Source: an uncultured virus (IMG/VR IMGVR_UViG_3300030116_006045) (Duplodnaviria; Heunggongvirae; Uroviricota; Caudoviricetes). Taken from it: 64,000 bases of DNA. Positions 985-63,098 of this stretch are shown here, in pieces (position 1 is the first letter of the stretch; each line of letters opens with the position of its first letter). The translations under genes were made by a program, and so were the position numbers. The stretch spans positions 1-64,000 of the IMG/VR virus record IMGVR_UViG_3300030116_006045; one strand, written 5' to 3'. The notes beneath the pieces were generated by a model that did not search any database, was not told the origin of the DNA, and saw nothing but the letters and a program-made list of their open reading frames with translations.

Positions 985-3900
985 TCAAGTGCGCGATGTG
1001 TCTCTTAAGTTTCCTGTATGGCTGGCTGGTTACTATGAAGACATGAACACCCTTCGTGGTGTGTATGAGGGTCAAGATTACGCAAGTTCAACCACTTACG
1101 ATAACCGACTTAACTCTCACTTTGGTAATCCTAACTCAATATCAACCATGATTGGTTCTGCTAGATCCAATGCGCGATTTAACTTTGTAGCAACAGATAG
1201 AAGCAACAGCCCAGATCACAACGAAGCACCCGCTGATTGGCTTACCTTCAACCCATATTCGTTACTTCCTAACTTCTACGAAGGACGCGCTCAAATGGTG
1301 CTACCAGATAGCATAGGAGACATAGCTTCAGGAGCTTTCTTAGCACAGCCTGTCAGAGCTGACTACGTTAGATATGCTTCCGGTCATAACACAAAGGACA
1401 CATATTGGTCAAGAGCTAATAATAACCACGATGTCGATATAGCCGAAGCTGGTTCACCGCAAGCGAAGAACATATCGAGTTATCATCAAACAAACATCGC
1501 TGGTGTGATGACTGGTGAAACACCTCGCGCTGGTGGTGCTGGGCCGATCTATGTGCCATACGCTTATCTTAGTCATATCACCTCACCATCAGGACAGCCT
1601 TTTTTCATTCATAGATTCAATCGACGAGTAGATGATTGGGTGGAGTTTGCCTCTATCGCCAACGATGGATCTGGAAAGAAGAAATACACAATAGCTACCG
1701 CGGCTCATGTTAATGGCGAAGGGCTTCACTCAAGCGACGAGTGGTATATTTTCAATGTGCAAACAGTTACTAAAACCTCGATTACTGTAAGTTTTACATC
1801 TGGTGCTACCTTTGTAGATATCCCAAACGGTGATCTCGACAATCTACTACCACTTGACCCAGGTGTGGCTATGACGAATCCAAACACAACAACAGCAACA
1901 GCTGTACACGCAATTGGTATTGGTAGTGATACATACTACTACAAAACACTCGCCGCTGTTAGCGGTGGTTACAGATTTACTTTAGATCCCGCTCGTCATG
2001 GATCTGGGCTTACTCAAAATTACACCAATCCAGCATTACAGGTGTTTTGTGATAAGCAACAGCTAGATCAAAACCAAACAGATGTGTTGCTTTACAATCA
2101 ATCATCAAGTGGAACCCCTTCAGGTTTTCGTGTTTTACCAACACAAGGAACTAGTGCTACATCTGAGCCACCTCTATGTAATCGACTATACATTGATGAT
2201 AATAGTAGTTCAATCAACATGATACGAGGCCCACAGTTTGATGTTGCTTCAAGTACTACAAGTTCTAGCACATCTGGGCCTTCAGGAACCACAGGAACGT
2301 ATTACATTTACACTATCAAAGTTAGAAGCGGTCAGCTGCCGTCTGATGTAACTATACCTAAAATTGGTGATAACCGAGCTGATGGTAATCCGTTTTACAA
2401 CAAAGCACCATTAAGAGATCTCAATGTGAATGATTACATTCAGGTAAAAGACAGTAGTGGATTCCTCACTACCCCAGAAAAAATAACAGCGATAAGCACA
2501 GGCGCACACGCCATGACAATAACTACTGATGCCACATACAGTGCTACAAGCACAGGGTTCCTTCGTTTCAGCACGTATGGGTCTTATGTCTTGAGTAGTG
2601 GTAGGCCAATTGACGGTTTATTTGGGTTTGAATCTGTAATGGTAGGTGATGTCGAGCTTAACGCACAAGGTAGCGATGGGGAGTGTTTTACGATAAGGAT
2701 GGCGACACAATCATTCGATAACGCCACAGGTGCAACACCAGGACACGCTGATCCCGTTTATGTTCTAAATGTAGGTTACAACAGAAACGACACTGACTTT
2801 GATCTGAACGAAAGAGGTAACATGGCTGGTAAGCTCCCAGCTGTTAGTCACAAGTTTAGACCGAAGGACGGTACTGGATTACCTGCAAGTAGAACACGTT
2901 TGTTCCTAGAATGGAATGGGACTACGAACAATAACTACACTCACGATCAAATATGGTTTGATATTGATGTTCAATTCGACTTCACCAATCAAAAATACCA
3001 GATCTTCGTAGATGGTACAGAGGTTGGGGCTGCAACGCCTTTCAATGCTAAAGCAGACGGTTCTAACTGGGCTGCTACTGATATGTACGGATGGAGTTTG
3101 GGTGTTCAAGTGTTTGATTCATTTCACGAAGCAAACAGCGAGTCGTTATACTTAGGCTACCCAGCATCATATAACGATCCAGGCACACACTCTGTCTTTA
3201 CTTTGGTAGAGCGAGCTGGGTGGTGCTACCGTCTTACTAACCGTCTGATTGCTAACGATGCCGCCTTCGCACCTAACGCACCTAACGCTGATTTCTTGAT
3301 CGACAATCTAAACCTAAAGAGTCAGGTTGATTCAATAAGTAGTTTAGAAATTGAGGTTCATGACGACGCTAACGAGCTTGGAATGTCTGCTCTTTTCAGT
3401 AACGCACCAGATTGGAGTATTCTTCTGTTTCGAGAGAATGATCACAGGCCAATCTGGAAGGGTTTGATTAGTGATGCTGACTTCTCTCAATCATCTTCTC
3501 AAAAGACAAAGGACGTTAGGATAAGAGCAAGAGATAGTTTAGCTGAAATGGAGTTTCAATTTCCATATTTCGATCTGGGACAAGAGGAATCAGGACCGTC
3601 CTTACAATCCGTGTATCGACAGTATGAAATCGCATCATACTCAAGGGCGTTTGATTTCGGAACCAGTAGTTTGTTGAATCTAAATTATACTGTTGGTTTC
3701 GATGAAGAAGCTAAAGATAGCAACGACCGCTATCGTGCAAGATATGATCAACGTATGCGTATGTTTTCCGCACACCCTATTCAGATGTACCTAAACGAAG
3801 ATAGTAACGGGCCTAACTTTGTGGAGGACAATTGGGAAGTGTCTCGAAAGATAGATTACATAGCACCAAGCGGCTCTACAAAGACGGAGATTTTCATGAC

Positions 3901-6900
3901 TAGCGATGGCGAAAACGACACAACCTATGCCGATAACGCCGACTTTACTGTGGGTAAAGAAATCAACATAGCAGGTATGTGGAAAAACAAGGGGATCCCT
4001 AACACTGGCGCAAGAAAATCATTACCTCAACTTGACGAAGGCGGTTACTTGTCTGTAACGCATGGGGGTAATAGTGTGGCTACACCACACAACGACTACT
4101 TAGGAGCTATAGCGATAGACAGTACTGGGACTACCGCCAATTCATTCATAATCGACAAAGCCTGGTCCAGATCCTTGAAGCTGGCTAAATTAGAAAACGC
4201 GAGTGGTTATTTGAAAATGAGATTAGAACCTATTAGTTCTAACAGATATGAATACATGGCTGGAACTACTTCTCAAAGAGAACAGGCTATCATAGCTCGT
4301 AATCCAGTATTGAGTTCGGCTAATGGATTAGAAGTAGTTCGGTTCTATGTTCAACCAAATGCGGGAGCGGCTGGTTCTTACGCTGCAGCTGCTAATCTTC
4401 CGTCTGAGGTATATACCTCATCAGCAATTACTTTTGAATCAACAGGCACCAGGGACTATGCTGTTGAGATCACAACAACAAAAACGGTAGCGAGCTTACC
4501 TTCCGCTTTACAGACAGCTTTGGGTAGTGGTGCTGTCGGTGCTGCATTGAAAGATATAGGAGATGTACTTGAAACGGATCTAGGATTTGTACACATAAAG
4601 GACTCGACATCATCATATCGTAACCATCATGTGAGATGGATGAGAGATATACCTCAGTCGCTTTGGTTTCAGAAAATCTTCGGTAAGATCCGACGTTACC
4701 CGTTCGGTTATACAGATACAACTGGGTTTTCTAACTGCGCTCTTACTACTCTTGAAGCTAATTTCAATACAGGTTCAGATACGACGGTTACTGTTGCTGA
4801 TACCTCTAAGTTCCCGACAGCGGGTGTTTGTGAAATATGGACATTAAACCCATACACACTGAATCTATTTGGTAGAACAAACGCTAGATTGCTAACCTCA
4901 TTTGTCTATAACGGTAAGACAGCCGGTAGTAACCGTTTGGACAATGTTAAGTTCGCAGATACTAATCAGGGAATCATAGCCTCAACAGTGGGTGAAGCCA
5001 CTAATCGTTACGTCGTATGTCGAGATATTAGTGGTGATTACAAACACATATGGGTGCTTTGGGCCGACATGAGAAACGATGGGTCAGCTGACGCTGATGG
5101 AGGCACTAGAAAGGAAGATTTCGGTCTTATTTACCCACTAAAACAGAACTACAAAGCAAGTATGGTTTGGGCTGCGACAGGACAAGAGTTTGTTGATCTC
5201 AAAATAGGTGATGAGATAGATATCTGGGCTGTTTCGGCGGATAAAGATCCAGCTACTACTACTGCCTGGTCTGATAATCCGACAGCTCTCATGATTGATT
5301 ATGGACAAAGAGGCACTAACACAATACGTCTTAGAGGCAACAGGTCAGATGATACAGAGACAATTACTTCATATCACAATTGGGAAAACAAGGCTGGTGC
5401 TTTTATCATATGCGACATGAGTAAGTTCTTCAATCTCAACACTGAAGCTAATAATGGTAGAGTCGGTCAGGACGCCGGTGGGCTTCGCACCCTCGATAAG
5501 CTCCTTGTTGAAAGCGAGGGCTTCCCTATGCTCATCGACAACTTTTGGTATCAAGCATCAGCAAATGATGAAACCGCAGGTAATCCTGTTCCAAAGGATC
5601 TAAATCAATACCAATGGCTTACAGCCCAAACAACACTACAACGAGATGTAGTTCAGACAGGTATAGGGGCTGCTACTCTTACTCAGAATCTTGCTGCGTC
5701 AGATACCGAGATGTTCGTATCGACTAACGCCCCATTCTTGAGTTCAGGTTCAGTGGTTATCAACGGAGATACTATCGCGTACACAGGTCGTGGGGGATCA
5801 CTCGCTAGTATTACTTTGGGTAGTAAAGGGGCTGGTTATCCAGCCGCCGGAGGAACCTGGACTACTACTGGTGGTGGTGGTTCAGCTGGTGCTGGCACTT
5901 ACGCTACTGAAATGGAAATTGCTTCTATGGCTATAAGTAACGGAGGTGCTGGGTATGGTGCTTCTAAGACAGGTATTTGGTGGGCAGACACAGGACAAGC
6001 AACAGGAACTTACACGACTAATGGATCTGGAGTGATTACTGCTGTTGCTATAAGTGGATCTGGAACTCGAAATGATTTCTATACATCAGCACCAACAATA
6101 ACTATCGATCCACCAACAGGACAGACACCCACCACTAACGCTGTATTCACTCCTACTTTAGCTACCACAGGTCGTCTAAGTACCGTTGCCATAACTAACG
6201 TCGGTAAAGGTTACGATCAATCAGGAGGTTCTATGATTACTGCGGTATGGAGCGGATCACCTTCAACTTCTGCTAACGCTCGGTTTGTGAATAACTCCGA
6301 CCAGCTTACGGGTGTTACAGGTATCGCAACAGCACATACGTCCGGCGATGCGGTACAATCAGCAAGCACTAATACGACGATGGAAGTATCTGACACATCA
6401 GGGTTCCCTGCGGCTATGGGGGCTAATCTGTTTAGTGCGGCAGGTATTGCTGGTAAAATCGAAGCGGTTACGACAGATGCTCAAGGTAACGAAAGCACAA
6501 CAGAATACGTCTTTACCTACACAGCGAAGACATCTACTTCATTCACAGGTGTAAAATATCGCCAGATCCGCAGCGGTGAAGATATAGATACCGCAGCTTT
6601 GGGCGTTATCAATAATGATGCTTTTACTATGAGTGGCGTTCCAACAATGAACGCCGCCGGAACTGTGATCCGTAGCTCATTAGGGTCTAACTTCCCAATG
6701 GGCTTCATGCTCAAGCTTGAAGGTAAGATAAAAACACCTAACGGTGGCTCATTTTACGAACATGATAAGATTAGAATCTATCAGGTCAGCTCACTCATCA
6801 ATGATTGGTTTAAGCAGTTAATTATGCCAGCTTTGTCTGACTTCAATAACGTACCAATCATGCACGATTTCAACGTCGATGGTAACACATCAGGAGCGGG

Positions 6901-9328
6901 AACTGTTGAGTCGTTTGGATCTGTATTAGATGCAAGGGGTAAGTCGGTATTATCCACTCTTAGAACGGTAGGTGCATCTTCCGGTGTTGGGGATGGAAGC
7001 TCGACGATTACAATGAACTACATGATGGGTCGAGACAATAGAATGGAGCTACGACCTAACTACAATGCTGGGCATAATTTCACTCGCAACAATCTCAAAA
7101 TATCTGATTTGAAAACAGGCAAGTCGAACACCTTTACTCACATTCGAGTGTATTACAACGGTGGTCAGTCCTTCGTGGATCACCCACAACAATCTTACAA
7201 TTCGCGTAATAGAGTCAAAGTGGTGAATGCGATAGAAGTCGCATCGTATGAACAGGCTCTTGCTATTGCGAAGCGTGAGTATCAGACAAGGAAAGATCCA
7301 GCTTTTAGTTTGGAATGTCAGGTTCTTCGGCAGAGTGGGGCGAGTCAAAGGGATGGCCCGATGCTTGCTGATGCTAAGTATGGGTATATCGCTGACCCAT
7401 ACGTTGTGCAAACAGGGCCATATTACGGTCTTAATCAACACGCAAGCGGTGGTGGTGGCACATTAGCCGTTGGATCTAGCGATGCTATCAATCATGCTTT
7501 TGCTACTCAATCAGTAGGTTACGGTGTTCAAGTGGTGCATATACCTCAAGGAATGCCTTCTGTAAGTGAGACAAGTGGAGAGGAACTTCGTATCTTTATT
7601 GCTGATGCTGTCGCATCTTTACCGGCCAGCACCAGGCTTAGTGATGATGCCGTTGATACTAAGAAGTTCAGGATATTTTTAGCGGATTACTCATTCGTAA
7701 ATAGTGCGTCTGGTGGCGGATCACTCGCACCACTGAAAAAAGCTGATCAAGAAGGAATAGAGGAAATAACAGTCAAGGGCAACGGTTTCTTTGAGATAGC
7801 TATACCCGCATCATACTGGTCGGCTGGTAACGCTGCAGGTTACAAGATTGTGCTATCAGTAAATGCTGACTACCTAAACGCAGTTGGAAGACACGCCGGA
7901 GGCACAAATTACGGCGGTAACGCTTTCGCTAATCAAAACTCAAGTTATGTGTCCGTATCAACGGGTAGTTTGCCTACTTTTACGAATGTGAACACAAGCT
8001 CGGCGTTTCCTTTGGGCATTCGAGATTATTCAGATCGAGGTGATCTCTATGTTTTCCGTAGTGTTTTGTACGCCCCACGATTAAGAATAACAGATGATGT
8101 GAATTACACAGTAGGAACTTATGTGACTTATACAGACAATCGTTTAGCGTTATCTAATCAGGTTATGTTTATTCAAAGTGTGGAGTATAGTTATAGTGCT
8201 AAAAGTTTGGATAGAACTACTTTGAGGCTTGAGAAGGAGCTAAATCGTATTCCAAGCGGTATAGCTGGCTATCTTCTACCAAACGTATTCGACGATAGAG
8301 GTGCTGGTGGCGGTGGTACTGGTGGCGGCGGTGGCTCAGGAGGATCTGGAGGGGGAGGATTCCCTGGCGGTGGTTTAGATGGGCCAGGATTCCCAGGAGG
8401 CGGATTGCTACCTCCGCCTGGGTTTGGACCGGACGGAGGTTATCTTGGACCGCAACAGGGAACATATACCGGACAGGGAGGTATTGTGGGTGAGCTTGGT
8501 TCTGTTAAAACACCGTCTTTGGGAGGTAATGTTCAGAGATTGAACAGAGACACAGGAGAACAGCAGTTTGGGCAATTAGGGGCGCATACTTCACCTGAAA
8601 TGGGTTCTAACAACATAACAAAGAACATGACAAACAAAATCAACGATACGATGAGAATGGACTCTTTAGTACCTAACGCAATTCAAGGATTACCAGGTCA
8701 AAAACCTCCTATCAAGATCGATCCGCGTATCAGAGCGATTGAGGGTATCGACACTAAGTTCTTGTCGAGCGAAGGACAAGCATCAGAAACAGCTGACGGA
8801 TGGATGCTACCTGGTGCTTCTCAGCTCGACGACAGTGAGGCTACTACAAATCAAGTGAACTCTCTGTCTGTTCAGGCTACCTTACCTACTGATGTCGCTA
8901 CACCAAATGTCGGTGTTACAGCCACAGTTTCATGTGATCTCGGACCCGCGAGTGATAAGGTCGTAGAACTAACCACTACTGTAACTTGCCCTGATACCGG
9001 AGATACATTAGAGAATGTTGTTGAGATTAGCGTTGCGAGTTCAATAACACGACAGCAAGTAGCACTTCTCCCATTGATGAAGTTCGATGCGGCTAACACA
9101 GCTGGTAGGAGCTTACAGATTACAATCACTCGAAAGCCAGATCAAGGAAACGACACAGCAGATTATTCTGCACTTACCATACATAACATACAGGTTGAAT
9201 CTAAAGCCCACAACAATCAGGGAACAGCGACTAATCAAAAGGTGCAAGCGTTCACTGGAACAGAACAAACAACCGACGACACAGATGAACTAAATCTCGA
9301 CATACGATCCGATGCTAGTCCAATATGA
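977..9328 (+). CDS. Giant (2783 aa) tail tip/baseplate-hub and receptor-binding protein
   Basis: Follows the TMP. Thr/Gly/Ser-rich beta domains, ISNGGAGY-type fibre repeats, a hub-like segment (LEIEVHDD...IWKGLISD...VRIRARD) and a Gly/Pro linker near the C-terminus. Confidence 0.75.
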   Translation: MGDQVRDVSLKFPVWLAGYYEDMNTLRGVYEGQDYASSTTYDNRLNSHFGNPNSISTMIGSARSNARFNFVATDRSNSPDHNEAPADWLTFNPYSLLPNFYEGRAQMVLPDSIGDIASGAFLAQPVRADYVRYASGHNTKDTYWSRANNNHDVDIAEAGSPQAKNISSYHQTNIAGVMTGETPRAGGAGPIYVPYAYLSHITSPSGQPFFIHRFNRRVDDWVEFASIANDGSGKKKYTIATAAHVNGEGLHSSDEWYIFNVQTVTKTSITVSFTSGATFVDIPNGDLDNLLPLDPGVAMTNPNTTTATAVHAIGIGSDTYYYKTLAAVSGGYRFTLDPARHGSGLTQNYTNPALQVFCDKQQLDQNQTDVLLYNQSSSGTPSGFRVLPTQGTSATSEPPLCNRLYIDDNSSSINMIRGPQFDVASSTTSSSTSGPSGTTGTYYIYTIKVRSGQLPSDVTIPKIGDNRADGNPFYNKAPLRDLNVNDYIQVKDSSGFLTTPEKITAISTGAHAMTITTDATYSATSTGFLRFSTYGSYVLSSGRPIDGLFGFESVMVGDVELNAQGSDGECFTIRMATQSFDNATGATPGHADPVYVLNVGYNRNDTDFDLNERGNMAGKLPAVSHKFRPKDGTGLPASRTRLFLEWNGTTNNNYTHDQIWFDIDVQFDFTNQKYQIFVDGTEVGAATPFNAKADGSNWAATDMYGWSLGVQVFDSFHEANSESLYLGYPASYNDPGTHSVFTLVERAGWCYRLTNRLIANDAAFAPNAPNADFLIDNLNLKSQVDSISSLEIEVHDDANELGMSALFSNAPDWSILLFRENDHRPIWKGLISDADFSQSSSQKTKDVRIRARDSLAEMEFQFPYFDLGQEESGPSLQSVYRQYEIASYSRAFDFGTSSLLNLNYTVGFDEEAKDSNDRYRARYDQRMRMFSAHPIQMYLNEDSNGPNFVEDNWEVSRKIDYIAPSGSTKTEIFMTSDGENDTTYADNADFTVGKEINIAGMWKNKGIPNTGARKSLPQLDEGGYLSVTHGGNSVATPHNDYLGAIAIDSTGTTANSFIIDKAWSRSLKLAKLENASGYLKMRLEPISSNRYEYMAGTTSQREQAIIARNPVLSSANGLEVVRFYVQPNAGAAGSYAAAANLPSEVYTSSAITFESTGTRDYAVEITTTKTVASLPSALQTALGSGAVGAALKDIGDVLETDLGFVHIKDSTSSYRNHHVRWMRDIPQSLWFQKIFGKIRRYPFGYTDTTGFSNCALTTLEANFNTGSDTTVTVADTSKFPTAGVCEIWTLNPYTLNLFGRTNARLLTSFVYNGKTAGSNRLDNVKFADTNQGIIASTVGEATNRYVVCRDISGDYKHIWVLWADMRNDGSADADGGTRKEDFGLIYPLKQNYKASMVWAATGQEFVDLKIGDEIDIWAVSADKDPATTTAWSDNPTALMIDYGQRGTNTIRLRGNRSDDTETITSYHNWENKAGAFIICDMSKFFNLNTEANNGRVGQDAGGLRTLDKLLVESEGFPMLIDNFWYQASANDETAGNPVPKDLNQYQWLTAQTTLQRDVVQTGIGAATLTQNLAASDTEMFVSTNAPFLSSGSVVINGDTIAYTGRGGSLASITLGSKGAGYPAAGGTWTTTGGGGSAGAGTYATEMEIASMAISNGGAGYGASKTGIWWADTGQATGTYTTNGSGVITAVAISGSGTRNDFYTSAPTITIDPPTGQTPTTNAVFTPTLATTGRLSTVAITNVGKGYDQSGGSMITAVWSGSPSTSANARFVNNSDQLTGVTGIATAHTSGDAVQSASTNTTMEVSDTSGFPAAMGANLFSAAGIAGKIEAVTTDAQGNESTTEYVFTYTAKTSTSFTGVKYRQIRSGEDIDTAALGVINNDAFTMSGVPTMNAAGTVIRSSLGSNFPMGFMLKLEGKIKTPNGGSFYEHDKIRIYQVSSLINDWFKQLIMPALSDFNNVPIMHDFNVDGNTSGAGTVESFGSVLDARGKSVLSTLRTVGASSGVGDGSSTITMNYMMGRDNRMELRPNYNAGHNFTRNNLKISDLKTGKSNTFTHIRVYYNGGQSFVDHPQQSYNSRNRVKVVNAIEVASYEQALAIAKREYQTRKDPAFSLECQVLRQSGASQRDGPMLADAKYGYIADPYVVQTGPYYGLNQHASGGGGTLAVGSSDAINHAFATQSVGYGVQVVHIPQGMPSVSETSGEELRIFIADAVASLPASTRLSDDAVDTKKFRIFLADYSFVNSASGGGSLAPLKKADQEGIEEITVKGNGFFEIAIPASYWSAGNAAGYKIVLSVNADYLNAVGRHAGGTNYGGNAFANQNSSYVSVSTGSLPTFTNVNTSSAFPLGIRDYSDRGDLYVFRSVLYAPRLRITDDVNYTVGTYVTYTDNRLALSNQVMFIQSVEYSYSAKSLDRTTLRLEKELNRIPSGIAGYLLPNVFDDRGAGGGGTGGGGGSGGSGGGGFPGGGLDGPGFPGGGLLPPPGFGPDGGYLGPQQGTYTGQGGIVGELGSVKTPSLGGNVQRLNRDTGEQQFGQLGAHTSPEMGSNNITKNMTNKINDTMRMDSLVPNAIQGLPGQKPPIKIDPRIRAIEGIDTKFLSSEGQASETADGWMLPGASQLDDSEATTNQVNSLSVQATLPTDVATPNVGVTATVSCDLGPASDKVVELTTTVTCPDTGDTLENVVEISVASSITRQQVALLPLMKFDAANTAGRSLQITITRKPDQGNDTADYSALTIHNIQVESKAHNNQGTATNQKVQAFTGTEQTTDDTDELNLDIRSDASPI

Positions 9329-10031
9329 ACTCATCGCGTAGATTTAGAATACGACGAGCTACTGTGCGACTAACACCGCTGGTTTCCATCAATTGTTTTT
9401 GAGTAGTGGATGCTTTCATTACATTTTTCAAGCTCCCTAAGCGAACTAATATGTCCATAGCTATACGCTCGCTAACACCAGGGACACCTGAAAGTGCAAG
9501 GATCTGGGGGTTGGTAGATGCCTTCGGTGTCTTACGAACAGCGCGAGCCGTAGTAAGTCGTTGTGATATTTCTTGTTGCTTGTGAACTCGACATACCCAC
9601 TCGACGAAGTGATCCATTGTGTCCACTTGCATGAATTGAATCTGGGGGAAGCGAAGATACAGTTCTTGCTTGAACTGTTTAATGACAGCATGAGCGCGAG
9701 CTATGTCGTCCTGTGGGCGACTGCGCCTATTTTTAGATGGGTTATACACCTTAATCTTAGAACCATACACAACAAGCATAGGTCGCTCAAAAGCTTCTAC
9801 CAGATCCGCAAGCTGGGCGTTGATTGTTCGAGAACGACCGATACCGAGAATAGATCTCCATAAGTCGTTTATTTCCTTAGCCTCGATGCCTATATCCCCA
9901 ACGATATAGTCAGCTGACTGCAGCCTTCTAACCTCAGCCTTACCGTTTGGATCGTGTTCCTTATCACCCAAAGCTATCAAGAACTTCGTGATTACCTTTT
10001 CATTTTCTCGATCATCAATTATCAGTGTCAT
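9315..10031 (-). CDS. ERCC4/XPF-family structure-specific nuclease with C-terminal HhH motifs
   Basis: IIDDRE motif, ADYIVG-IGIEAK(ERKxxxD-like) core, and two HhH motifs (VPGVSERIA, TSGVSRTVA). Confidence 0.85.
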   Translation of the reverse strand: MTLIIDDRENEKVITKFLIALGDKEHDPNGKAEVRRLQSADYIVGDIGIEAKEINDLWRSILGIGRSRTINAQLADLVEAFERPMLVVYGSKIKVYNPSKNRRSRPQDDIARAHAVIKQFKQELYLRFPQIQFMQVDTMDHFVEWVCRVHKQQEISQRLTTARAVRKTPKASTNPQILALSGVPGVSERIAMDILVRLGSLKNVMKASTTQKQLMETSGVSRTVARRILNLRDEFILD

Positions 10032-10230: not shown

Positions 10231-11229
10231 TTACAGCTGGACTGTGCCATCATATCGCCAGCATTTACCTTTGCACATACCTTTACCTGCGAACCATCTG
10301 CAAGAAGGCGTAGTTTTCATTTCGATAATAGAAGCTAAATGAGTACGTGTGGTCTGTTCTCGAAAGTCACGCCAATTGAGATCCTTGATGTAACCAACAG
10401 CAGCGTCTATCACCGCTTCTTTTTCATCCCCACTCATTTGAGCTGGGTCTGAGAAGTTTCGTAAGTTTTCGACAAGGTGTTGCCCAAAAGCTACCCTGAC
10501 AAAGTGTTGTGGGTTTTCAGTGTGTATAGCGTCTAAGCAAGGCATCATAGGTATTTGATCTGCGCTTACTACGTCGCCAAGCATAGTTTCGCCTATCTCG
10601 GTGTTGTTTGTTTCAGGTGGATTATCTGCGACCCATCTAACTAAGCTGAATGATGAGGTTTGTTTCTTGAATGGGTTTAGGTGCGATAGAGTTCGATCTG
10701 GTGTTTTGGGTATCTCATAACCAAGCGGGTCAGCTGCAAACCGTTCAGGGTCTATCACAACAGCCCATCGTCCTCTCTTTGGGTTGAGTGTGTTAGGTAC
10801 TCGACATAATCTATCGACAGTGCCTATACAATCAAGTGTGCTTAGATCTTGAGCCATTTCTCTTTCATATCGTGTAAGCTCAGAAGGCCATCTGTCGCCA
10901 ATCACAGGTTCTCTAAGGATCTGGTGAACGTGAAATCCACGACCTGTCGCTACCGCGAGAACTGTGCCATCTAATCTCTTGATTAGCTCCGCAGCGTCCC
11001 TCTTCACCTGTGGGTCATCATCACCATCAAAATCCCACCAGGCTCGGTCGATTACAGCGGAATTGTGATCGTAGGTCATCTTGTAGCCATTCCACTTCAT
11101 ATCGTTAAATGAGTATAAGCTGGTGTAGCAAGCCGACTTATCTCTAAGTGTGTTAATGATACGGTTGAAGTCGTCTTTGCTTTCGCACTTAGACCTCTTG
11201 AGGCCCACCTCTCTTGGAAATCGCATCAC
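10231..11229 (-). CDS. priS: Archaeo-eukaryotic primase, PriS catalytic domain fused to a PriL-like Fe-S C-terminal domain
   Basis: AEP motifs WWDFDG, TGRGFHV and RLCRVPNT. The C-terminal PC...H..R...PSC...GMCKGKC pattern is typical of the PriL CTD. Confidence 0.85.
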   Translation of the reverse strand: MMRFPREVGLKRSKCESKDDFNRIINTLRDKSACYTSLYSFNDMKWNGYKMTYDHNSAVIDRAWWDFDGDDDPQVKRDAAELIKRLDGTVLAVATGRGFHVHQILREPVIGDRWPSELTRYEREMAQDLSTLDCIGTVDRLCRVPNTLNPKRGRWAVVIDPERFAADPLGYEIPKTPDRTLSHLNPFKKQTSSFSLVRWVADNPPETNNTEIGETMLGDVVSADQIPMMPCLDAIHTENPQHFVRVAFGQHLVENLRNFSDPAQMSGDEKEAVIDAAVGYIKDLNWRDFREQTTRTHLASIIEMKTTPSCRWFAGKGMCKGKCWRYDGTVQL

Positions 11230-11372: not shown

Positions 11373-11623
11373 TCTTCTTCGCCCCCACGATTTACAAACG
11401 CTCCATGTTCCGGTAAAACATTGTCGTATTTAGCAATTTTTTCTTTCGTTTCTTTACTTAACGATGTCTTATGCCCACATAAAGGGCAGTTAGTAACAAG
11501 GAAAAACCCTTCTTTGTCAGAGCCAAATCCTATCCAAAACCCAGTAACAGGACAAGATCGAACTCTACATCGAGCTTCAGCACCCCATATGAAAATCATA
11601 CGTTGTGGATCATATTTCCTCAT
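11369..11623 (-). CDS. Small Cys-rich (CPxCG) hypothetical protein
   Basis: CRVRSC and CPLCG motifs; ATGA-coupled to neighbours. Confidence 0.55.
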   Translation of the reverse strand: MRKYDPQRMIFIWGAEARCRVRSCPVTGFWIGFGSDKEGFFLVTNCPLCGHKTSLSKETKEKIAKYDNVLPEHGAFVNRGGEEE

Positions 11624-12450
11624 ATCGAGCTAACTCCTGTCATCAGTTCGGTATCACAGCTAACGGTGTAATCGCACCACTGAGTACAGAAGTATTCATT
11701 CCAATTGATAGGCCAATCATGATTCTTGATACCATCCACAGAAGCATGGAGATCTCTTTCCATACCTGATATACTTCTATTCGTAACAGGCTCTACAATA
11801 GCGGCCCCCTGGATCTGGCCCAAATACACATCGCGGGTCTGTCGCTTTTGATTGAGTAAAGAAGTAACGAACTTAGCATCGACGCAATCAGGAGCTATCA
11901 CAGCATAATGTGTTATTTCTTCGGTAGCGTAGTCAGGGTGCAGTAAAAGCATTCTACGATAGAAGGCCAGTTCTTTACGGAACCGGCTCATCTTAGAAGA
12001 TGTGAGGTTGCCTGTCTTGAGTTCTACTAAGATAAGACCGCCTTCAGGATGACGCCAAATACCGTCGATAATACCACGAAGCTCGCAAGCAAGCTCGTCG
12101 TCCCAAACCGAAAACTTCTGTTCCACACCCACGATTTCAATACCGTCCGGCCCCATATCTTCTTCAATAAAATCCATGAGTTCGCCCAGGGCAACAATAC
12201 CTTCGTCTGCTGTGATTGGTAATCGAGAGAGGTATGTGCCTGGCGTATCATCTTTCATTACGTCTTCAAGAAGCTGATGTATCTCAGTTCCTCTTGCAGC
12301 TGCAGGGCTTTTGGGCTTTTCCAGATCATACAATGCGATATAGTCCATGTAATACTGACGAGGGCATCTAAGATACGTCGTAAAAGACGATTTTGAAACA
12401 CGCAGATTAGCGTTTTCAACAGCTGGATCGTAACTACTCTTGAACGTCAT
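11620..12450 (-). CDS. Cas4/RecB-like PD-(D/E)xK exonuclease
   Basis: SKSSFTTYLRCPRQY, RGTEIH, RGIIDG...VELKTG and C-terminal CxxCxxxxxC (Fe-S ligands). Confidence 0.85.
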   Translation of the reverse strand: MTFKSSYDPAVENANLRVSKSSFTTYLRCPRQYYMDYIALYDLEKPKSPAAARGTEIHQLLEDVMKDDTPGTYLSRLPITADEGIVALGELMDFIEEDMGPDGIEIVGVEQKFSVWDDELACELRGIIDGIWRHPEGGLILVELKTGNLTSSKMSRFRKELAFYRRMLLLHPDYATEEITHYAVIAPDCVDAKFVTSLLNQKRQTRDVYLGQIQGAAIVEPVTNRSISGMERDLHASVDGIKNHDWPINWNEYFCTQWCDYTVSCDTELMTGVSSI

Positions 12451-12934: not shown

Positions 12935-13117
12935 TCAACCCTGTTTATTTTTATCCTTATTTACACTAATATCGCGTGGCGGAGAGTAATCTCTATCAGC
13001 TACTCGAAATACGCCACAGTGCATATTGCCGTTGATTTTATGATTATTGTAACCACACACTCGCTTTATCCCACAATTAGAACAGACGCGCAAGCACTTT
13101 CGCGGCATCAAACCCAC
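12935..13117 (-). CDS. Small Cys-rich zinc-finger protein
   Basis: CSNCG...HCG; overlaps the MTase stop. Confidence 0.5.
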   Translation of the reverse strand: MGLMPRKCLRVCSNCGIKRVCGYNNHKINGNMHCGVFRVADRDYSPPRDISVNKDKNKQG

Positions 13118-21267: not shown

Positions 21268-21488
21268 CCACTCACCTCAAACTCAGCGACGTTATCACGC
21301 TTGGCGACATAACGAATAATAGATTCAAACTGGGCCTGAAGCTGACAGACATCCATCATTTCCTTAGATAGTAGCTCCATTTCACCCTCGAATGTGGCGA
21401 CGGAATCTTCCAGATCCTTTACGGTTTTAGTTAGGGCCTCAAGCATCTGTGTTAGTGAGTCGATTAGATCTAATGTAGCATCTCCCAC
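21264..21488 (-). CDS. Small coiled-coil protein
   Basis: Heptad repeats. Confidence 0.5.
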   Translation of the reverse strand: MGDATLDLIDSLTQMLEALTKTVKDLEDSVATFEGEMELLSKEMMDVCQLQAQFESIIRYVAKRDNVAEFEVSG

Positions 21489-46546: not shown

Positions 46547-46707
46547 CGTGGACCCTCACTCAAGAACATTTCAAGAGTTCGGATTAACAATTGTCTATCT
46601 ATGTCTCCAGATCCACGACGTAATCCAGATAAATATACTTCTAACCTGTGTTGTAGATGCCCACAGCGAACTTGAGGCAATTCAATATGTGCCACAGGTC
46701 TTTTCAT
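46543..46707 (-). CDS. 54-aa hypothetical protein (not in ORF track)
   Basis: Hand translation MKRPVAHIELPQVRCG...; ATGA overlaps on both sides. Confidence 0.55.
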   Translation of the reverse strand: MKRPVAHIELPQVRCGHLQHRLEVYLSGLRRGSGDIDRQLLIRTLEMFLSEGPR

Positions 46708-55269: not shown

Positions 55270-55485
55270 ATGAGCTGGCTTGAGCGTGTTTATGCCCAGG
55301 AAGGGCTGCAATACGTTGCTGTCCCAGATCCTGAACCTTCTATGGATTATTCGGGTCTAAAGGTAGCTGAACTACGTGATTTATTAGAAGCTCAAGGGCT
55401 TCCTACTAACGGTCGAAAGGCCGATTTGATTGCTCGTCTTGAAGAGAATAGTGAAGTGAGTACAGATGGCGAAGAAGAAGAGTAA
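55270..55485 (+). CDS. SAP/HeH-domain protein
   Basis: YSGLKVAELRDLLEAQGLPTNGRKADLIARL is a canonical SAP motif. Confidence 0.85.
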   Translation: MSWLERVYAQEGLQYVAVPDPEPSMDYSGLKVAELRDLLEAQGLPTNGRKADLIARLEENSEVSTDGEEEE

Positions 55486-55819: not shown

Positions 55820-56205
55820 TGGCTGTTACCACAACACAGATTCGTGATTTACTTAACAGACCTACGGGACTTGTTGAAGGAACAATCACAGAATACATCA
55901 ACATGAGGGATCGTGAAGCTACTAAGATAGCAAGAACTAGCTCATACAACATAGGAACGGATCACCAAGTCACTACGGATCTAAAAGAAGATTTCATCAA
56001 GGCTGCTGTATGCGTCGATTGTCTTATCGTATTGATTGATACTCTCCCATCGGATCTGGAGCCAAATCAACGCACTGTCAGTGATACACGGTTTCGAGAA
56101 CAATTGAACGCATTCAAAGAGCGCATGGCTACTGCCCGACAGAACATAGCAGAACCTAACGCAGCTGCCTTCGCTACGGATTCAACAGCGACCAGGCAGG
56201 AGTAA
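55819..56205 (+). CDS. Putative head-tail adaptor
   Basis: Helical, MAVTTTQIRDLL-type N-terminus, located after the MCP. Confidence 0.5.
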   Translation: MAVTTTQIRDLLNRPTGLVEGTITEYINMRDREATKIARTSSYNIGTDHQVTTDLKEDFIKAAVCVDCLIVLIDTLPSDLEPNQRTVSDTRFREQLNAFKERMATARQNIAEPNAAAFATDSTATRQE

Positions 56206-56207
56206 GC

Positions 56208-58124
56208 ATGACTGATTTTTATTGGGTAGCTACCGGCACTACCGCTACTGACGCAGCAGCGGCTGGTGGGTGGAGTACAAGCTCAGGAGGTTCAGCACAG
56301 TCGTCTTGGCCTGGCTCAAGCCCTACAACCACAGATAATTTTTATTTCGATGCTAATTCAAACGCCCCTTGTATATGGGGCATCGCTTCTGTGGAATCCA
56401 TAGTATGTAGCCTTACATCTCTTTTCACAGCTGGTATTCAGCTTAAAGGAAATGTGGCCCTAAAAGGATTACAATTGAACACACCTCTTACTCTCAACAG
56501 TGGAACCGCGTCTTCAACACTCACATTCAGCAGTCCTTTGAGTGGCTTTCGAGATTCAGCATCAAAGGATAGATTTGTTTTGAATGGTCAGAAGGCTAAC
56601 GTCACAGGAGACATTACTTACAAGTTTCAAGGAAACGTGTACTTAGATGACGGCCCATATCAAAAGATAGATCTCAATAGTGGTATCTTACTACCTGGTT
56701 ACAATGTTCCTACAAGCACTGTTCATGACAATGCTGATGACGGCTTTGCTCATGTTAAGGGGGCATTCATAACATCAGGTGGAACAGTGTCCAGATCCAC
56801 AGTAGTTCCTAACCGAGCTTTAGATTCAGCTAAGAAGTTCAAGATCGATACTACCACATTCACTTATGCACATACCAGCTTTGATGCTATGCTGTCCCAA
56901 TGGTGGTTTAGAGGTATTACTTTGCCTGTGTCCGGCTCTACGACATATGGTGGTGGTTCTCCAGCTTTCCAAGCTAAACACCACTCGATTGTAATCTTCG
57001 CAAGCTCGGCTGGTGATAAAGTAACAATTACATCGGGTCTTACTCTCGACTGTTATGATCTGGAGATTCGTGCTGGTGCTAGATTAGTCAGCTCATCAAA
57101 CGGAGATCCCGTAACAATCCGCACACAAAAGCTTCCCACGATTAACGGTGGCTGGTCTTTCGAGCCGGTAGCATCGTTTGAGTTCGTATCTCCCAGGAAC
57201 AACCCTGTCCTTCCTATCGTTCGTGGCGGAACAGGACTGAAGACCATAGGAACAGCTGGGCAGGTATTGAAAGTCAATAGCAGTGCTAACGCTCTTGAAT
57301 ATGGAGCTGTCTCCGGTGGATCTGGAACAGTAACAAGTGTTGCTACCTCAGCCCCAATCACAGGAGGAACAATTACAGCAACAGGTACAATCGGTATCAG
57401 CGCGGCAACGACAAGTGCCGCTGGATCTATGTCTTCGGCTGATAAGACCAAGTTAGACGGTATCGAAGCCTCGGCTGACGTTACCGATGCAACAAACGTG
57501 GCGGCGGCAGGAGCGTTAATGGATTCAGAGCTTACAGATTTAGCTGGCGTCAAAGGTGTAACAATATCTACGCTTCAAGTAAAGCCAAGTGAGGGTGCAT
57601 TCGCAAATGGAGACAAAACTAAACTCGATGGAATAGCTGCTAACGCTACTGCATACGCTGATGCTAACGCACAACAAGCATCTCTTGGTGTGGCACTAAC
57701 AACAGTGACGCTTGGCACAACCGTTAGCGGTTTTACTTCGGGTGCATACACAATCGCACCCTTGAACAACGTCGTGAAAGACGTAACAAGTGCGTGGGAT
57801 GGCTCAGGATATTACTTTACTGCACCCGCCGATGGGATCTATCATGTTACTTTCAATGCCTCTATACAAGGACTTACCACCTTATCACACGTTGCTATCA
57901 CTAGATTATACAAAGACACAGGCAGCGGATTTAACTTCATAGCATCTGGAAGCACCGCCAGACAAAGTGGTGCTGTGGCAGTAGGAAATGTAACTTTAGC
58001 CCTAAATACTGGTGATAAGTTAGCACTATATGTTTATCATGATGGGGGTTCCAGTAAGAATCTTCTTGGTGATAACATAGCACCAAATTACACAATGATG
58101 TCTATTAGGATGGTGGGTCTATGA
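56208..58124 (+). CDS. Fibre protein with C1q/TNF-like C-terminal domain
   Basis: GTAGQVLK and DKTKLDGI fibre repeats; C-terminal FTAPADGIYHV...LNTGDKL C1q pattern. Confidence 0.75.
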   Translation: MTDFYWVATGTTATDAAAAGGWSTSSGGSAQSSWPGSSPTTTDNFYFDANSNAPCIWGIASVESIVCSLTSLFTAGIQLKGNVALKGLQLNTPLTLNSGTASSTLTFSSPLSGFRDSASKDRFVLNGQKANVTGDITYKFQGNVYLDDGPYQKIDLNSGILLPGYNVPTSTVHDNADDGFAHVKGAFITSGGTVSRSTVVPNRALDSAKKFKIDTTTFTYAHTSFDAMLSQWWFRGITLPVSGSTTYGGGSPAFQAKHHSIVIFASSAGDKVTITSGLTLDCYDLEIRAGARLVSSSNGDPVTIRTQKLPTINGGWSFEPVASFEFVSPRNNPVLPIVRGGTGLKTIGTAGQVLKVNSSANALEYGAVSGGSGTVTSVATSAPITGGTITATGTIGISAATTSAAGSMSSADKTKLDGIEASADVTDATNVAAAGALMDSELTDLAGVKGVTISTLQVKPSEGAFANGDKTKLDGIAANATAYADANAQQASLGVALTTVTLGTTVSGFTSGAYTIAPLNNVVKDVTSAWDGSGYYFTAPADGIYHVTFNASIQGLTTLSHVAITRLYKDTGSGFNFIASGSTARQSGAVAVGNVTLALNTGDKLALYVYHDGGSSKNLLGDNIAPNYTMMSIRMVGL

Positions 58125-58667: not shown

Positions 58668-59191
58668 CTTACTACTGTTCAACCGCAGACGTAGCTCAAC
58701 GCTTAGGTCTTGATGCAGCTCAACGCACCAGATCCGCAAGTCGATTAGGTAGTGTGATCCGTAGAGCTACTGTTGAAATCGATTCCTGTTTTCGTAACTA
58801 CGGTCGTGATGCACCCTCCCGCGAAACAGCTTCTTCGACGTTAAATGGCGGAGTTAGTGCTGGTGCTACTACTATCACACTCGCAAGCGGAACGGGCTTT
58901 AGCAACGCAGGTAACGGTAACGTCGATGGTGATTCATTCAAGTGGACTGGTAAATCTACTAACGACCTTACAGGTGTTACTGGACTTAGCGCGGATCACG
59001 CCACTGGGGTCACGGTCGAACAGGGTGAGTTCGCTCATGTTATGCGCGAGGTATGTGCTGACATCGCTGCAGGTATGTATCTTCAAGATGAAGCTGCTTT
59101 TTCAACAGAAACAGCTATTCGCGCTCCGATCTATACCCAACGTGGCTACGAACTTCTATATCGAACAGCCAAGCTTGGGACGGTGGATTGA
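58664..59191 (+). CDS. Head-tail adaptor (gp15/gp6-like) with an inserted beta domain
   Basis: YYCSTADV...IRRATVEIDS...REVCADIAA adaptor pattern. Confidence 0.7.
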   Translation: MTYYCSTADVAQRLGLDAAQRTRSASRLGSVIRRATVEIDSCFRNYGRDAPSRETASSTLNGGVSAGATTITLASGTGFSNAGNGNVDGDSFKWTGKSTNDLTGVTGLSADHATGVTVEQGEFAHVMREVCADIAAGMYLQDEAAFSTETAIRAPIYTQRGYELLYRTAKLGTVD

Positions 59192-60029: not shown

Positions 60030-61109
60030 ATGGCGGTCGCACCTTTTACTACAATTTGGTCGAGTCGTATAGATGGGGGAGATCCCACAGACCCACCAGG
60101 CTCACAGAACACAGCTTTCACAGGAAGTGCTGGGTCAGCTGACGGTAAGAATTGGAAGATCAATAGTAGCACAGGATCTGGCTACTACTCACTTACACCT
60201 ACTACTACTGCCTACACAATGTTCATCGGCATTTCTTACACTAACGCGAGTGATCTCCCCGCTGATGGGACAGTTCTCGCTGAGTTGGACAACGGCACAA
60301 AGAAGGTTCAGCTTCAGGCTGATGGGACAGCTACCGGACTAAAGCTCGTAGGCGCAACAACACAGTCGTTTGGCGATCTGGATCTAACTCGAACAGAGGT
60401 TGATTCGTTACCTACTTCTGTTCGTATCACTCTTGACGCAGCTGGTAACGCGAAAGCCTATCTGTTTGAGATTATAGAAGGTGATGATGGTAACGATCTG
60501 ACTTTAGCTGTTGCGGGTTCTAGCGGTTCAAGTGCAACAGCAAAGTGGGGCAACAATGACGGAGAGGTAACTTGGCATACCACTTACCTATGTACAGCTG
60601 GAGCGTTCAATCCTGATGAGATTTCTATTGCTGACTATACTACACAAACACTCATCCAAACCGCATTCTCTGTTATCGAGACACTAAAGGATAGTTCACG
60701 ATTTCATCTAAAGTCAGTCGATCCAGGCTCTATCTATTATGGTTATGATCTCAGCTCACAAATGATGACCCGCACAGTGCTACCAGCTATCGTAGTTCTT
60801 GTTGAACGTATAGACAGCCCTGATATGTACGCGCTTGCTGGTGTTGCCGCTGAATACACCTTTAACGTAAGAATCATGGTTGTTACAAAGGGAATCGACT
60901 ACAAGAACGCATATCGTCAAGGTTTGGATCTGGTCGGTGAGATAATGGACGAGCTTTACGCTAAGACAGGACTCAAAGCATCTGTGGACTCTCTTACAGC
61001 GCATCAGACCCGCCTTGATAGTCGAATGGACCCCGATGAACAGATTAGTATTCACGACATATCACTAACATATATGAAAAGAATCGATCTCCATCGTCGC
61101 TCACCTTGA
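60030..61109 (+). CDS. Putative tail terminator with N-terminal beta-sandwich domain
   Basis: C-terminal LPAIVV...YTFNVRIMVV pattern, immediately before the tail tube gene. Confidence 0.55.
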   Translation: MAVAPFTTIWSSRIDGGDPTDPPGSQNTAFTGSAGSADGKNWKINSSTGSGYYSLTPTTTAYTMFIGISYTNASDLPADGTVLAELDNGTKKVQLQADGTATGLKLVGATTQSFGDLDLTRTEVDSLPTSVRITLDAAGNAKAYLFEIIEGDDGNDLTLAVAGSSGSSATAKWGNNDGEVTWHTTYLCTAGAFNPDEISIADYTTQTLIQTAFSVIETLKDSSRFHLKSVDPGSIYYGYDLSSQMMTRTVLPAIVVLVERIDSPDMYALAGVAAEYTFNVRIMVVTKGIDYKNAYRQGLDLVGEIMDELYAKTGLKASVDSLTAHQTRLDSRMDPDEQISIHDISLTYMKRIDLHRRSP

Positions 61110-61146
61110 TAAGTCGCCCGAATAGTGATTCGTTATAGGTGAGTCC

Positions 61147-62205: not shown

Positions 62206-62218
62206 TGAGGTGATTTAG

Positions 62219-62431: not shown

Positions 62432-62472
62432 TAGTCGGCCATGAGCCATAAGTAAAAGAAGAAGTGAAAAAA

Positions 62473-62817: not shown

Positions 62818-63098
62818 TCTATCAGGTAGCCCCGATCCTGTGTTCGACGTTCAAGGGGATTCTTCCTTCGGATCTGGTGGACAGATACGATGGGCCGTTA
62901 GGTCGTTGGAAGATGGAGTTAGATGTAGCAGTAGCTGGAGAAATAGCAGACCAATTGAACGAGTCAGCTCAGTCCAACAAGAAAGGAGCCAACCGCAACA
63001 AAGCTCGCGGTGCTGTGGCTCGTCGGAAACAGCGCAGAAAGCTGTATTCGGGAGTCGAAACGAGTGATTCGCTTAAGAGTATGATGGAGGGAGATTGA
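62805..63098 (+). CDS. -1 frameshift extension of the tail chaperone (gpGT-like)
   Basis: C CCT TTG (62805-62811) is an X XXY YYZ site; the -1 frame is open from there (FGVIYQVAPILC...) to TGA at 63098. Confidence 0.75.
   Translation, partial: PFGVIYQVAPILCSTFKGILPSDLVDRYDGPLGRWKMELDVAVAGEIADQLNESAQSNKKGANRNKARGAVARRKQRRKLYSGVETSDSLKSMMEGD

Follow-up and report, generated by a model that had tools for sequence, protein, structure and literature searches.

Few cases of selection on DNA as such are clearer than the hyper-abundant short words, among them HIP1 of cyanobacteria, Chi and the uptake sequences; what HIP1 does is still unsettled. Chi is present about once per 4.5 kb in E. coli, Chi words differ between host lineages, and T4-like phages carry simple late-promoter octamers. 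HIP1 (GCGATCGC) is tied to orphan GATC and CGATCG methyltransferases, and where the HIP word differs the methyltransferase differs too; a methyl-directed repair ratchet should, by prediction, reach saturation at about one site per 1,000 nt (Elhai, 2015; PMC4390886). An excess of 15–300x, selection, periodicity and sites conserved between genomes are given for HIP1 by Xu, Lawrence and Durand (2018; PMC5861425). Methylated HIP1 is described as Chi-like in transformation in a preprint (Kamoku and Nielsen, 2024), and an uptake-signal role for HIP1 was proposed in 2026 (PMC13756078). For archaeal tailed viruses, GATC is all-or-none by presence of a Dam-type methyltransferase, as stated by Liu et al. 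(2021; PMC8651126). Here the octamer GGATCTGG (reverse complement CCAGATCC) is described in the genome of an uncultured marine tailed virus (Caudoviricetes; IMG/VR record IMGVR_UViG_3300030116_006045, here G000). The window is positions 1 to 64,000 of this record, all 64,000 nt of which were analysed. The record consists of one viral contig (64,951 bases) with a run of 10 N at 63606–63615; its first and last ~292 bases overlap, leaving ~64,659 unique bases and indicating a complete assembly. From HIP1, its nearest known counterpart, GGATCTGG differs in being asymmetric, viral, confined to one lineage and regular at the kilobase scale.

Exactly 52 copies were found in the window by pattern search, 23 on the plus strand and 29 on the minus strand. 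A preliminary description of this DNA had listed 52 coordinates by eye; every one is an exact copy, and the window holds no others. The whole record has 53, the additional copy being at 64320, which corresponds to 0.82 per kb or ~1 copy per 1.2 kb. GGATCTGG is by far the commonest octamer of the record (53 copies against 20 for the next unrelated octamer). About two copies had been expected by chance, and dinucleotide-preserving shuffling gave the same figure (2.18, sd 1.37, largest 8; 0 of 100 shuffles reached 52). Markov models of orders 0–4 expected 1.6–4.7 copies. Raw models of orders 5 and 6 expected 19.3 and 42.0, figures that are circular because the 6- and 7-mers feeding these models are mostly the word itself; when the 53 copies were masked, the expectations fell to 4.3 and 3.9, so that the enrichment survived this null model, which had been named as able to remove it. 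Genes were taken from crude longest open reading frame (ORF) calls. Synonymous-codon shuffling within them gave 5.70 ± 2.32 copies (maximum 13 in 200 shuffles) and codon-order shuffling 2.65, in agreement with the earlier opinion that codon usage was an unlikely explanation. The enrichment amounts to ~18–24x over the 2.2–2.9 copies expected from dinucleotides and from a second-order Markov model, and to ~9x over the synonymous-codon shuffle.

G000 offers 118 places at which synonymous codons allow the word, of which 52 are used, and 16 of its 22 Gly-Ser-Gly tripeptides carry it. Five near-complete related genomes (G001–G005, 61–68 kb) were used for comparison; 67 such places exist in G001 and 61 in G002, and none is used in either. 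Codon or dipeptide bias as the cause was ruled out by the synonymous and codon-order shuffles together with this count of possible sites, and the word is supported as a DNA-level signal that is neither a codon nor a peptide effect. Near-identical contigs (2 differences in 4,386 bases) were present in an independent metagenome of another study, later samples of which contained strains 3–13% diverged. A Tara scaffold, 99.97% identical over 11.1 kb, has all 10 copies of that stretch. No RNA dataset with the virus was found among the matches listed.

Of the 53 copies, 51 lie inside ORFs and two outside called ORFs. Sense copies number 34 (16 read as GSG, 17 as xDL and one as IW), and antisense copies 17 or 18 in two separate counts (PDP 3, xRS 7 and QI 7 in the 53-copy set). 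The bias to the coding strand, the several frames and the two orientations described earlier were thereby borne out, with copies in five reading frames. The 2:1 coding-strand excess follows coding opportunity: 34 of 72 possible sense sites (47%) and 18 of 46 possible antisense sites (39%) are used. Because gene direction and GC skew switch together along the genome, replication-linked and coding-linked orientation cannot be separated. Copy position within genes is roughly flat (14, 12, 8, 8 and 9 per fifth), and density stays at 0.64–1.04 per kb over all gene-length classes and over the tail-fibre, replication, small-ORF and structural regions, including small ORFs without homologues in relatives. 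A promoter-type motif was rejected on the in-ORF location, the roughly uniform position within genes and the one third of copies that are antisense. A dispersed repeat of the REP or MITE type (repetitive extragenic palindrome; miniature inverted-repeat transposable element) was rejected on the unconserved flanks and on the ungapped alignment of copies with orthologous codons (1 gap in 22).

The word is sharply defined, most one-letter variants having 0–4 copies. Those in excess are CGATCTGG (14 against 2.2 expected), TGATCTGG (9 against 3.8) and GGATCTAG (12 against 3.8); the excess falls at the outer positions 1 and 7, and the loose form of the word can be written [G>C,T]GATCT[G>A]G. The octamer as a whole is not a palindrome; its GATC core alone is. 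The flanks show no conservation beyond weak preferences at −1 and +1, where G is avoided just before and A favoured just after the word. At two gene junctions (29006–29023 and 34857–34874, both minus strand) the copy is embedded in the 18-mer GAGGTGGATCTGGAATGA, in which a Shine-Dalgarno-like GAGGTG is followed by the octamer and this by ATGA, an overlapping start and stop. The uptake sequences (DUS, the DNA uptake sequences of Neisseriaceae, and USS, the uptake signal sequences of Pasteurellaceae) resemble GGATCTGG in being present ~1 per kb, on either strand and against codon preference, and they too form 'dialects' between related lineages, as in the clade of this virus. They are read by cellular competence machinery; viruses lack an uptake step of this sort, and a Pfam scan of the 98 ORFs of G000 revealed no competence genes. 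DUS are also often paired in terminators, unlike GGATCTGG with its location within ORFs.

Copies are spaced far more evenly than random placement would give. The gaps have a coefficient of variation (CV) of 0.55; randomly placed copies would have 0.97, and none of 5,000 simulations reached so low a value. The observed CV is also the lowest when set against 972 control words with 40–160 copies in the same genome (median CV 1.01). Both tails are depleted: 2 gaps are shorter than 304 bases (a quarter of the mean) against 11.6 expected, and none exceeds 3,049 bases (2.5x the mean) against 4.3 expected. The longest gap measures 3,045 bases, where random placement gives 5,583 on average. For the 36 near-cognate copies, the median distance to true copies is 506 bases, compared with 332 in circularly shifted controls (P = 0.006); they fill gaps, and the combined set of near-cognates and true copies is more even (P = 0.010). 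Gap filling of this kind was not seen for AGCTGG, GGATCA or CTCGAA in G000. Antisense copies are seldom neighbours, with 1 adjacency among the 17 of 51 genic copies (permutation P = 0.005, post hoc). Regular spacing specific to one orientation was rejected, as neither class shows significant regularity when taken by itself (P = 0.18 and 0.15). Overall, the spacing speaks for a function acting over ~1 kb, and a recombination-hotspot or self-mark role, as suggested earlier, would fit it.

Action at a distance along DNA, as by Chi, would explain such even coverage. Chi (e.g. GCTGGTGG of E. coli; 5–8 bases, with RecBCD/AddAB) is likewise non-palindromic, over-represented, mostly in genes and lineage-specific. 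A methylation-independent signal of this type would be a bare word, read by a helicase-nuclease or recombination module that attenuates degradation or loads a recombinase; a copy would be needed within ~1 kb of any break and in both orientations, and the reader could be viral (Cas4-like, Mre11-like, Sak4-like or ERCC4) or belong to the host. The non-palindromic octamer, the depletion of short and long gaps, the presence of both orientations everywhere and the four nuclease or recombination proteins encoded by the virus all agree with it, as does the rarity of adjacent antisense copies, which two-ended breaks would favour; lineage-specific words would also explain why related viruses have different ones. 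We nevertheless consider it unlikely. Single orientation classes are not regular and the adjacency test was post hoc, the sense/antisense ratio tracks coding opportunity with no sign of polarity (and no clear replication-linked strand skew beyond it), and no RecBCD/AddAB-type protein was detected among 98 ORFs with Pfam or 35 with PHROGs. The density is ~4x that of Chi in E. coli, the GATC core and methyltransferase link of GGATCTGG have no counterpart in Chi, and the GATC-centring of the clade words and the coincident module swap, both described below, would be left unexplained.

Short words were examined against synonymous shuffles, and each genome of the family avoids its own set to an extreme degree. 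In G000 the observed and expected counts are 0/103 for AGACT, 18/140 for CAACT, 0/31 for CCAAGG, 0/35 for GAATTT, 0/30 for GAGGAG, 1/38 for CTGTAG and 45/162 for CTAG, and CCCGG, GGATAC, GTAAAC and TTCGAA have no copies. Zero-copy words are CTAG, GTAGA and GAGAC in G001; CCGG, CTAG, ACTGG and CTCAG in G002; and GATC, TCGA, AGCT, ACGT and GTAC in G003. G004 has 0 GATC and 0 AGCT, and G005 has 1 AGCT and 67 CCAG against 405 expected. The avoided words look like the imprint of many restriction systems, and avoidance so extreme and so different between genomes makes the family a rich source on the arms race of viruses with such systems. A second, weaker excess in G000 is centred on AGCT (observed/expected: AGCT 483/329, AGCTG 335/190, AGCTGG 111/46), a word almost wholly lacking in G003–G005. 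AGCTGG is moderately regular (CV 0.75) and is placed independently of the octamer; as its copies do not avoid octamer copies, it was ruled out as a second form of the same signal.

The many words almost wholly avoided raise a compositional explanation, in which codon usage, dipeptides or avoidance funnel choices into the octamer, which is perhaps kept as overlapping methylation shields CTGG, CTAG and CCAGA. The total for TCTGG is as expected (124 against 135), with the copies concentrated directly after GA, and CCAGA is scarce where the next base is A, C or G (18 against 84 expected). Of the 44 CTAG sites in genes (the whole genome has 45), 12 fall within GGATCTAG. The explanation is very improbable and is largely refuted by the synonymous shuffles, with their 5.7 copies, by the masked Markov models and by a synonymous-swap chain in which 58 avoided words were held at or below their observed counts and the word decayed from 52 to 3–9 copies. 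Avoidance thus does not create the word, and its origin as a by-product of avoidance was ruled out. Other CTGG contexts are undepleted (TCCTGG 35 against 33, ACCTGG 33 against 31), and regular spacing would not be predicted.

A terminase search in IMG/VR yielded 50 related loci (59–84% identity, 504 kb in total), which contain 2 copies of GGATCTGG; G001–G005 contain none. In the test in related viral genomes suggested earlier, the excess thus proved specific to this virus lineage. Some of these have a word of their own. GGATCA has 132 genic copies in G001 against 43 expected and 103 in G002 against 49, with gap CVs of 0.55 (second lowest of 967 control words) and 0.57 (third lowest of 1,001), respectively. 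It is the dominant GATC context, with 35–64% of sites, in 20 further or overlapping loci of the clade; L004 and L011 prefer AGATCA, and G000 itself has no excess of GGATCA (53 against 53 expected). Other candidates for 'own words', namely TTATGTAAC and ACAGGACC in G004, ACGGCCAAA in G003 and CGCAAGCGT in G005, were rejected as clustered repeats or a Thr-Gly-Pro repeat protein (CV 2–6). The G004 arrays comprise 42 copies of TTATGTAAC and 37 of ACAGGACC, all of the latter Thr-Gly-Pro in one frame, and ACGGCCAAA forms a cluster in G003; iteron-like arrays and a collagen-like repeat protein are possible interpretations. The palindromic octamer GGAGCTCC has 15 sites in G002 (0.9 expected in genes) and none in G000 or G001, and 14 of the 15 genic GAGCTC sites of G002 are in this context.

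Copies of G000 could be compared in alignable orthologues at 22 places in G001 and 19 in G002, and the relative never has GATC there. The relative encodes the same residues at 5 and 3 of these places, respectively, and the protein differs at 16 of 22 and 15 of 19. With about three quarters of comparable copies at protein differences, accumulation of the word was not confined to silent positions; it proceeded through silent and amino-acid-changing substitutions, on either strand and in every kind of gene. GGATCA sites common to G001 and G002 amount to 34–47%, compared with 25.6% for hexamers generally (rank 88 of 285), and this partial sharing implies that density is maintained with positional turnover. 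L203, a 1.3-kb metagenome fragment 86.5% identical to G000, lacks a copy matching that at 14527 and has one 123 bases away, where G000 has none (~0.04 expected from uniform base frequencies). A genome-wide, lineage-specific directional force writes the word with coverage-type spacing.

In IMG/VR, at least 120 loci have two GGATCTGG copies within 30 bases; in the 8 loci with the most dispersed copies among the matches listed, the word is not among the five commonest octamers. In the literature GGATCTGG was found, among the matches listed, in primer and linker uses only. No description of evenly spaced or over-represented words of this kind in phage genomes was found, which does not show absence from print.

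The different words of related viruses could reflect different hosts, and the genome-individual avoidance profiles show different host defence sets. Under host mirroring, the host would be rich in GGATCTGG (as a Chi, uptake or architecture word) and the virus would match it by selection or shared repair bias. The sole cellular terminase match in GTDB genomes was a 4.2-kb contig (L201) in a Rhodobiaceae bin, and this bin has 10 copies of the word in 1.3 Mb and is not enriched. Among 401 alphaproteobacterial genomes the density does not exceed ~0.27 per kb (G046, unpublished; the next, G064, ~0.24), against 0.82 in the virus, and the high values occur in large genomes, where Asp-Leu is plausibly written GAT-CTG. 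These counts cover Alphaproteobacteria, not archaea; the explanation is weakened by them and we regard it as improbable. A conserved ORF at 10231–11229 (minus strand) has archaeal PriX/PriL primase subunits as its language-model look-alikes, a lead only, and this PriX/PriL-like protein hints at an archaeal host. A further conserved ORF (29549–30865, minus strand) has superfamily 3 (SF3) helicases as look-alikes in the same kind of comparison, again as a lead.

The virus encodes a C5 cytosine methyltransferase, two N6/N4 methyltransferases, DpdA and Mom (Table 1). Alignments of the C5 enzyme show conserved catalytic parts with a region between them built of exchangeable modules. Among the six genomes the enzyme is present in G000–G002 only, and no homologue in IMG/VR is closer than 48% over the full length. 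Module B of this target-recognition (TRD) region was present in all five GGATCA-type genomes whose gene was seen (G001, G002, L191, L193 and L199) and absent from G000, L197 and L192. The G000 enzyme has modules A (common with L197), C (common with G001 and G002) and D (residues 286–373, window positions 14729–14992). Module D is private to this virus lineage: a search of metagenomes at JGI (Joint Genome Institute) returned the same virus again (L202, 99.97% identical) and L203, and nothing else. L197 (IMG/VR, 43.8 kb) has a short single-module C5 enzyme of 308 residues with module A only; its favoured GATC contexts are AGATCT and AGATCA, and it shows no excess of GGATCTGG. The switch of word thus appears to coincide, as a correlation, with swapped TRD modules, and the C5 enzyme is the best candidate for the writer of the word. 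A link to a viral methyltransferase, as proposed before, gains from module B in five of five GGATCA genomes and from the private module D in G000, and goes as far as this correlation.

DpdA and Mom, also named earlier in connection with the word, gained no such support. A DpdA homologue is present in G001 and in none of G002–G005, and Mom is absent from G001–G005; both are dispensable for GGATCA, because G002, without either, still carries this sister word. The target of Mu Mom is SAS or SASNY, far looser than the octamer (PMC13219725). A short C-terminal tail, (E/G)-W-(L/V/I), is common to the three methyltransferases and to their homologues in relatives, and may serve as a shared docking peptide.

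The analogy with HIP1 in the preliminary description was well founded. Both words are GATC-centred octamers present ~1 per kb, in genes, in several frames and many-fold over expectation, and both show an excess of one-letter variants at the outer positions. N6-type and C5-type methyltransferase genes occur in the same genome in both cases, side by side in the virus, and in both a change of word between related lineages goes with a change in methyltransferase specificity or module. GGATCTGG differs in being non-palindromic, in occurring in a 65-kb tailed virus and not a cellular chromosome, and in being private to one virus lineage where HIP1 is conserved throughout a phylum. GGATCTGG is regular at short range (gap CV 0.55), HIP1 with a periodicity of 10–90 kb, and positional conservation is weak here, as judged on the sister word GGATCA. 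The GATC dichotomy of archaeal tailed viruses is seen in this family also: G003 and G004 have 0 GATC, and G000–G002, with more methyltransferases, have 245–384. That rule (PMC8651126) covers tolerance of GATC and not one 8-letter context enriched 10–20 fold and regularly spaced.

By this analogy, GGATCTGG may be a HIP1-like, methylation-linked word that marks about every kilobase of the genome for repair, recombination or nuclease control and is kept by selection or biased repair, a reading that we favour tentatively and hold to be quite possible. In mechanistic terms, the word would be the extended target of the virus's own methyltransferase set, in which the site recognised by the private C5 module D would enclose that of a Dam-type GATC activity. 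Each methylated copy would mark its ~1-kb neighbourhood for a DNA-processing machine, either for strand or self discrimination in repair or for Chi-like restraint and recombination loading of an end-resecting nuclease; a nearby second copy would bring no further benefit, and the lack of a mark over a long stretch would carry a cost. When the recognition module changed in this lineage, the ancestral clade word GGATCA appears to have lost its excess and the new word to have been written in. The outcome would be a re-programmable 'self-word' system: a modular methyltransferase sets an asymmetric word, the genome writes it about every kilobase, the methylated word lets an end-processing or repair machine distinguish viral DNA, or the parental strand, from other DNA, and a module swap leads to a rewrite of the whole genome, as from GGATCA to GGATCTGG. 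This fuller scheme is more speculative and, taken as a whole, somewhat doubtful.

Several observations weigh against a methylation-linked word. Modules A and C of the G000 enzyme occur also in genomes without the word, so that the methyltransferase link hangs wholly on module D, and the correlation of module with word comes from few, phylogenetically dependent genomes. Relatives of the three methyltransferases in the PDB match the catalytic cores only. Classical multispecific phage C5 enzymes read palindromes of 4–6 bp, and it would be unusual for a C5 module to recognise an asymmetric site of 8 bp. No MutS, MutL, MutH or Vsr-like genes were detected by Pfam or PHROGs. Positional conservation, the main selection argument for HIP1, is weak (GGATCA ranking as given above), and the sole G000 copy that could be compared with L203 is not conserved. 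Mom, the sole modification gene unique to G000 among the six genomes, may also have a part in the story.

A neutral version of the methylation link was considered as well, following the 'epiphenomenon' of Elhai, in which mismatches by a methylated core are resolved to the complete word by methyl-directed biased repair and the word has no use. One copy per 1.2 kb with both gap tails depleted matches the saturation predicted for such a ratchet, and variants in excess at outer positions 1 and 7 recall HIP1 (both points after PMC4390886); the turnover of copies in position is also as expected. The same lack of mismatch-repair genes among the Pfam and PHROG matches, and the protein differences at about three quarters of comparable copies (16 of 22 and 15 of 19), make it improbable in our judgement. 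The tendency of near-cognates to shun true copies would be predicted by the ratchet too and does not discriminate.

Terminase, portal and tail tube genes identify a tailed virus, which also encodes PolB and a clamp loader. A small HTH/Zn-ribbon ORF lies at 19778–20101. None of the named phages is close (terminase identity <25%). A 2,783-residue ORF (977–9328, plus strand) has no Pfam match, is 46–48% identical to its counterparts in G001 and G002, and probably encodes a tail fibre or a protein for host recognition. The search for tRNA genes was negative, and a relaxed Pfam search on 13 unknown ORFs gave nothing usable. Positions of the word copies and of the genes discussed are collected in Table 1.

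Table 1. Copies of GGATCTGG in the window and genes for modification, nuclease and recombination proteins. Amino acids are those encoded at the copy.
Feature	Position	Strand	Remarks
Word copy	1667..1674	+	sense, GSG, in 2783-residue ORF
Word copy	2000..2007	+	sense, GSG
Word copy	4167..4174	-	antisense (SRS)
Word copy	6023..6030	+	sense, GSG
Word copy	6056..6063	+	sense, GSG; with 6023 copy, sole pair <300 bases apart
Word copy	6562..6569	-	antisense (QI)
Word copy	8342..8349	+	sense, GSG
Word copy	9500..9507	+	antisense (QI), ERCC4 nuclease gene
Word copy	9800..9807	-	sense, DL, ERCC4 nuclease gene
Word copy	10917..10924	+	antisense (QI), primase-like ORF
Word copy	11811..11818	+	antisense (QI), Cas4-like nuclease gene
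Word copy	13250..13257	-	sense, GSG, N6/N4 methyltransferase a
Word copy	14527..14534	-	sense, DL, C5 methyltransferase; no copy at same place in relative L203
Word copy	16041..16048	-	sense, GSG, N6/N4 methyltransferase b
Word copy	17109..17116	-	sense, GSG, N6/N4 methyltransferase b
Word copy	18621..18628	+	antisense (QI), PolB
Word copy	19422..19429	-	sense, DL, PolB
Word copy	20302..20309	-	sense, GSG
Word copy	21410..21417	-	sense, DL
Word copy	22412..22419	-	sense, GSG, Sak4-like AAA_24 gene
Word copy	24340..24347	-	sense, DL, DpdA
Word copy	26283..26290	-	sense, DL, clamp-loader gene
Word copy	26723..26730	-	outside called ORFs
Word copy	27348..27355	+	antisense (SRS)
Word copy	29010..29017	-	sense, DL, stop/start junction (18-mer as at 34861)
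Word copy	30591..30598	-	sense, GSG, helicase-like ORF
Word copy	32753..32760	-	sense, frame 1 (IW), sole IW copy
Word copy	33325..33332	-	outside called ORFs
Word copy	34044..34051	-	sense, GSG
Word copy	34861..34868	-	sense, DL, stop/start junction
Word copy	35802..35809	-	sense, DL
Word copy	36548..36555	+	antisense (SRS)
Word copy	37961..37968	-	sense, DL
Word copy	40015..40022	+	antisense (xRS)
Word copy	43060..43067	+	sense, DL
Word copy	44015..44022	+	antisense (QI), Mre11/SbcD-like exonuclease gene
Word copy	44450..44457	-	sense, DL, Mre11/SbcD-like gene
Word copy	44821..44828	-	sense, GSG, Mre11/SbcD-like gene
Word copy	46607..46614	-	antisense to small, uncertain ORF
Word copy	47449..47456	+	sense, DL, portal gene
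Word copy	47927..47934	-	antisense (PDP), portal gene
Word copy	49461..49468	+	sense, DL
Word copy	50029..50036	-	antisense (PDP)
Word copy	52368..52375	+	sense, DL
Word copy	55324..55331	-	antisense (PDP)
Word copy	56052..56059	+	sense, DL
Word copy	56791..56798	-	antisense (SRS)
Word copy	57318..57325	+	sense, GSG
Word copy	58728..58735	-	antisense (xRS)
Word copy	60174..60181	+	sense, GSG
Word copy	60926..60933	+	sense, DL
Word copy	62870..62877	+	sense, GSG
ERCC4/XPF-type nuclease with helix-hairpin-helix (HhH) domain	9315..10031	-	Pfam PF02732 1.2e-09
Cas4-like PD-(D/E)XK exonuclease, candidate end-processing reader	11620..12450	-	Pfam PF12705 1.3e-15; PHROG exonuclease
N6/N4 DNA methyltransferase a (beta class), Cys-rich insertion	13108..14322	-	Pfam PF01555 9.3e-44
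C5 cytosine DNA methyltransferase, modular variable (TRD) region	14483..15847	-	Pfam PF00145 1.1e-56
N6/N4 DNA methyltransferase b (beta class), large repeated insertion	15869..17395	-	Pfam PF01555 2.5e-33
Sak4-like AAA_24 recombination ATPase	21493..22467	-	Pfam PF13479 1.8e-09; phrog_124
DpdA (7-deazaguanine DNA transglycosylase family)	24008..24796	-	Pfam PF23859 5.5e-74
Mom-family DNA adenine modification protein	24798..25415	-	Pfam PF25680 1.1e-34
Mre11/SbcD-like exonuclease, candidate end-processing reader	43503..45011	-	phrog_704 1.2e-62; Metallophos_2 below cut-off

The virus offers a compact case of a hyper-abundant word: a 65-kb genome with candidate writer genes, and sister genomes with a different word and a different enzyme module. 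If the self-word system is real, it would be the first viral counterpart of HIP1, and because the writer and the genome are small and encoded together, it would open a tractable route to the 30-year-old question of what HIP words do. If the methyltransferase link is true, word and writer could be moved together into a laboratory system, and the reader could then be sought directly.

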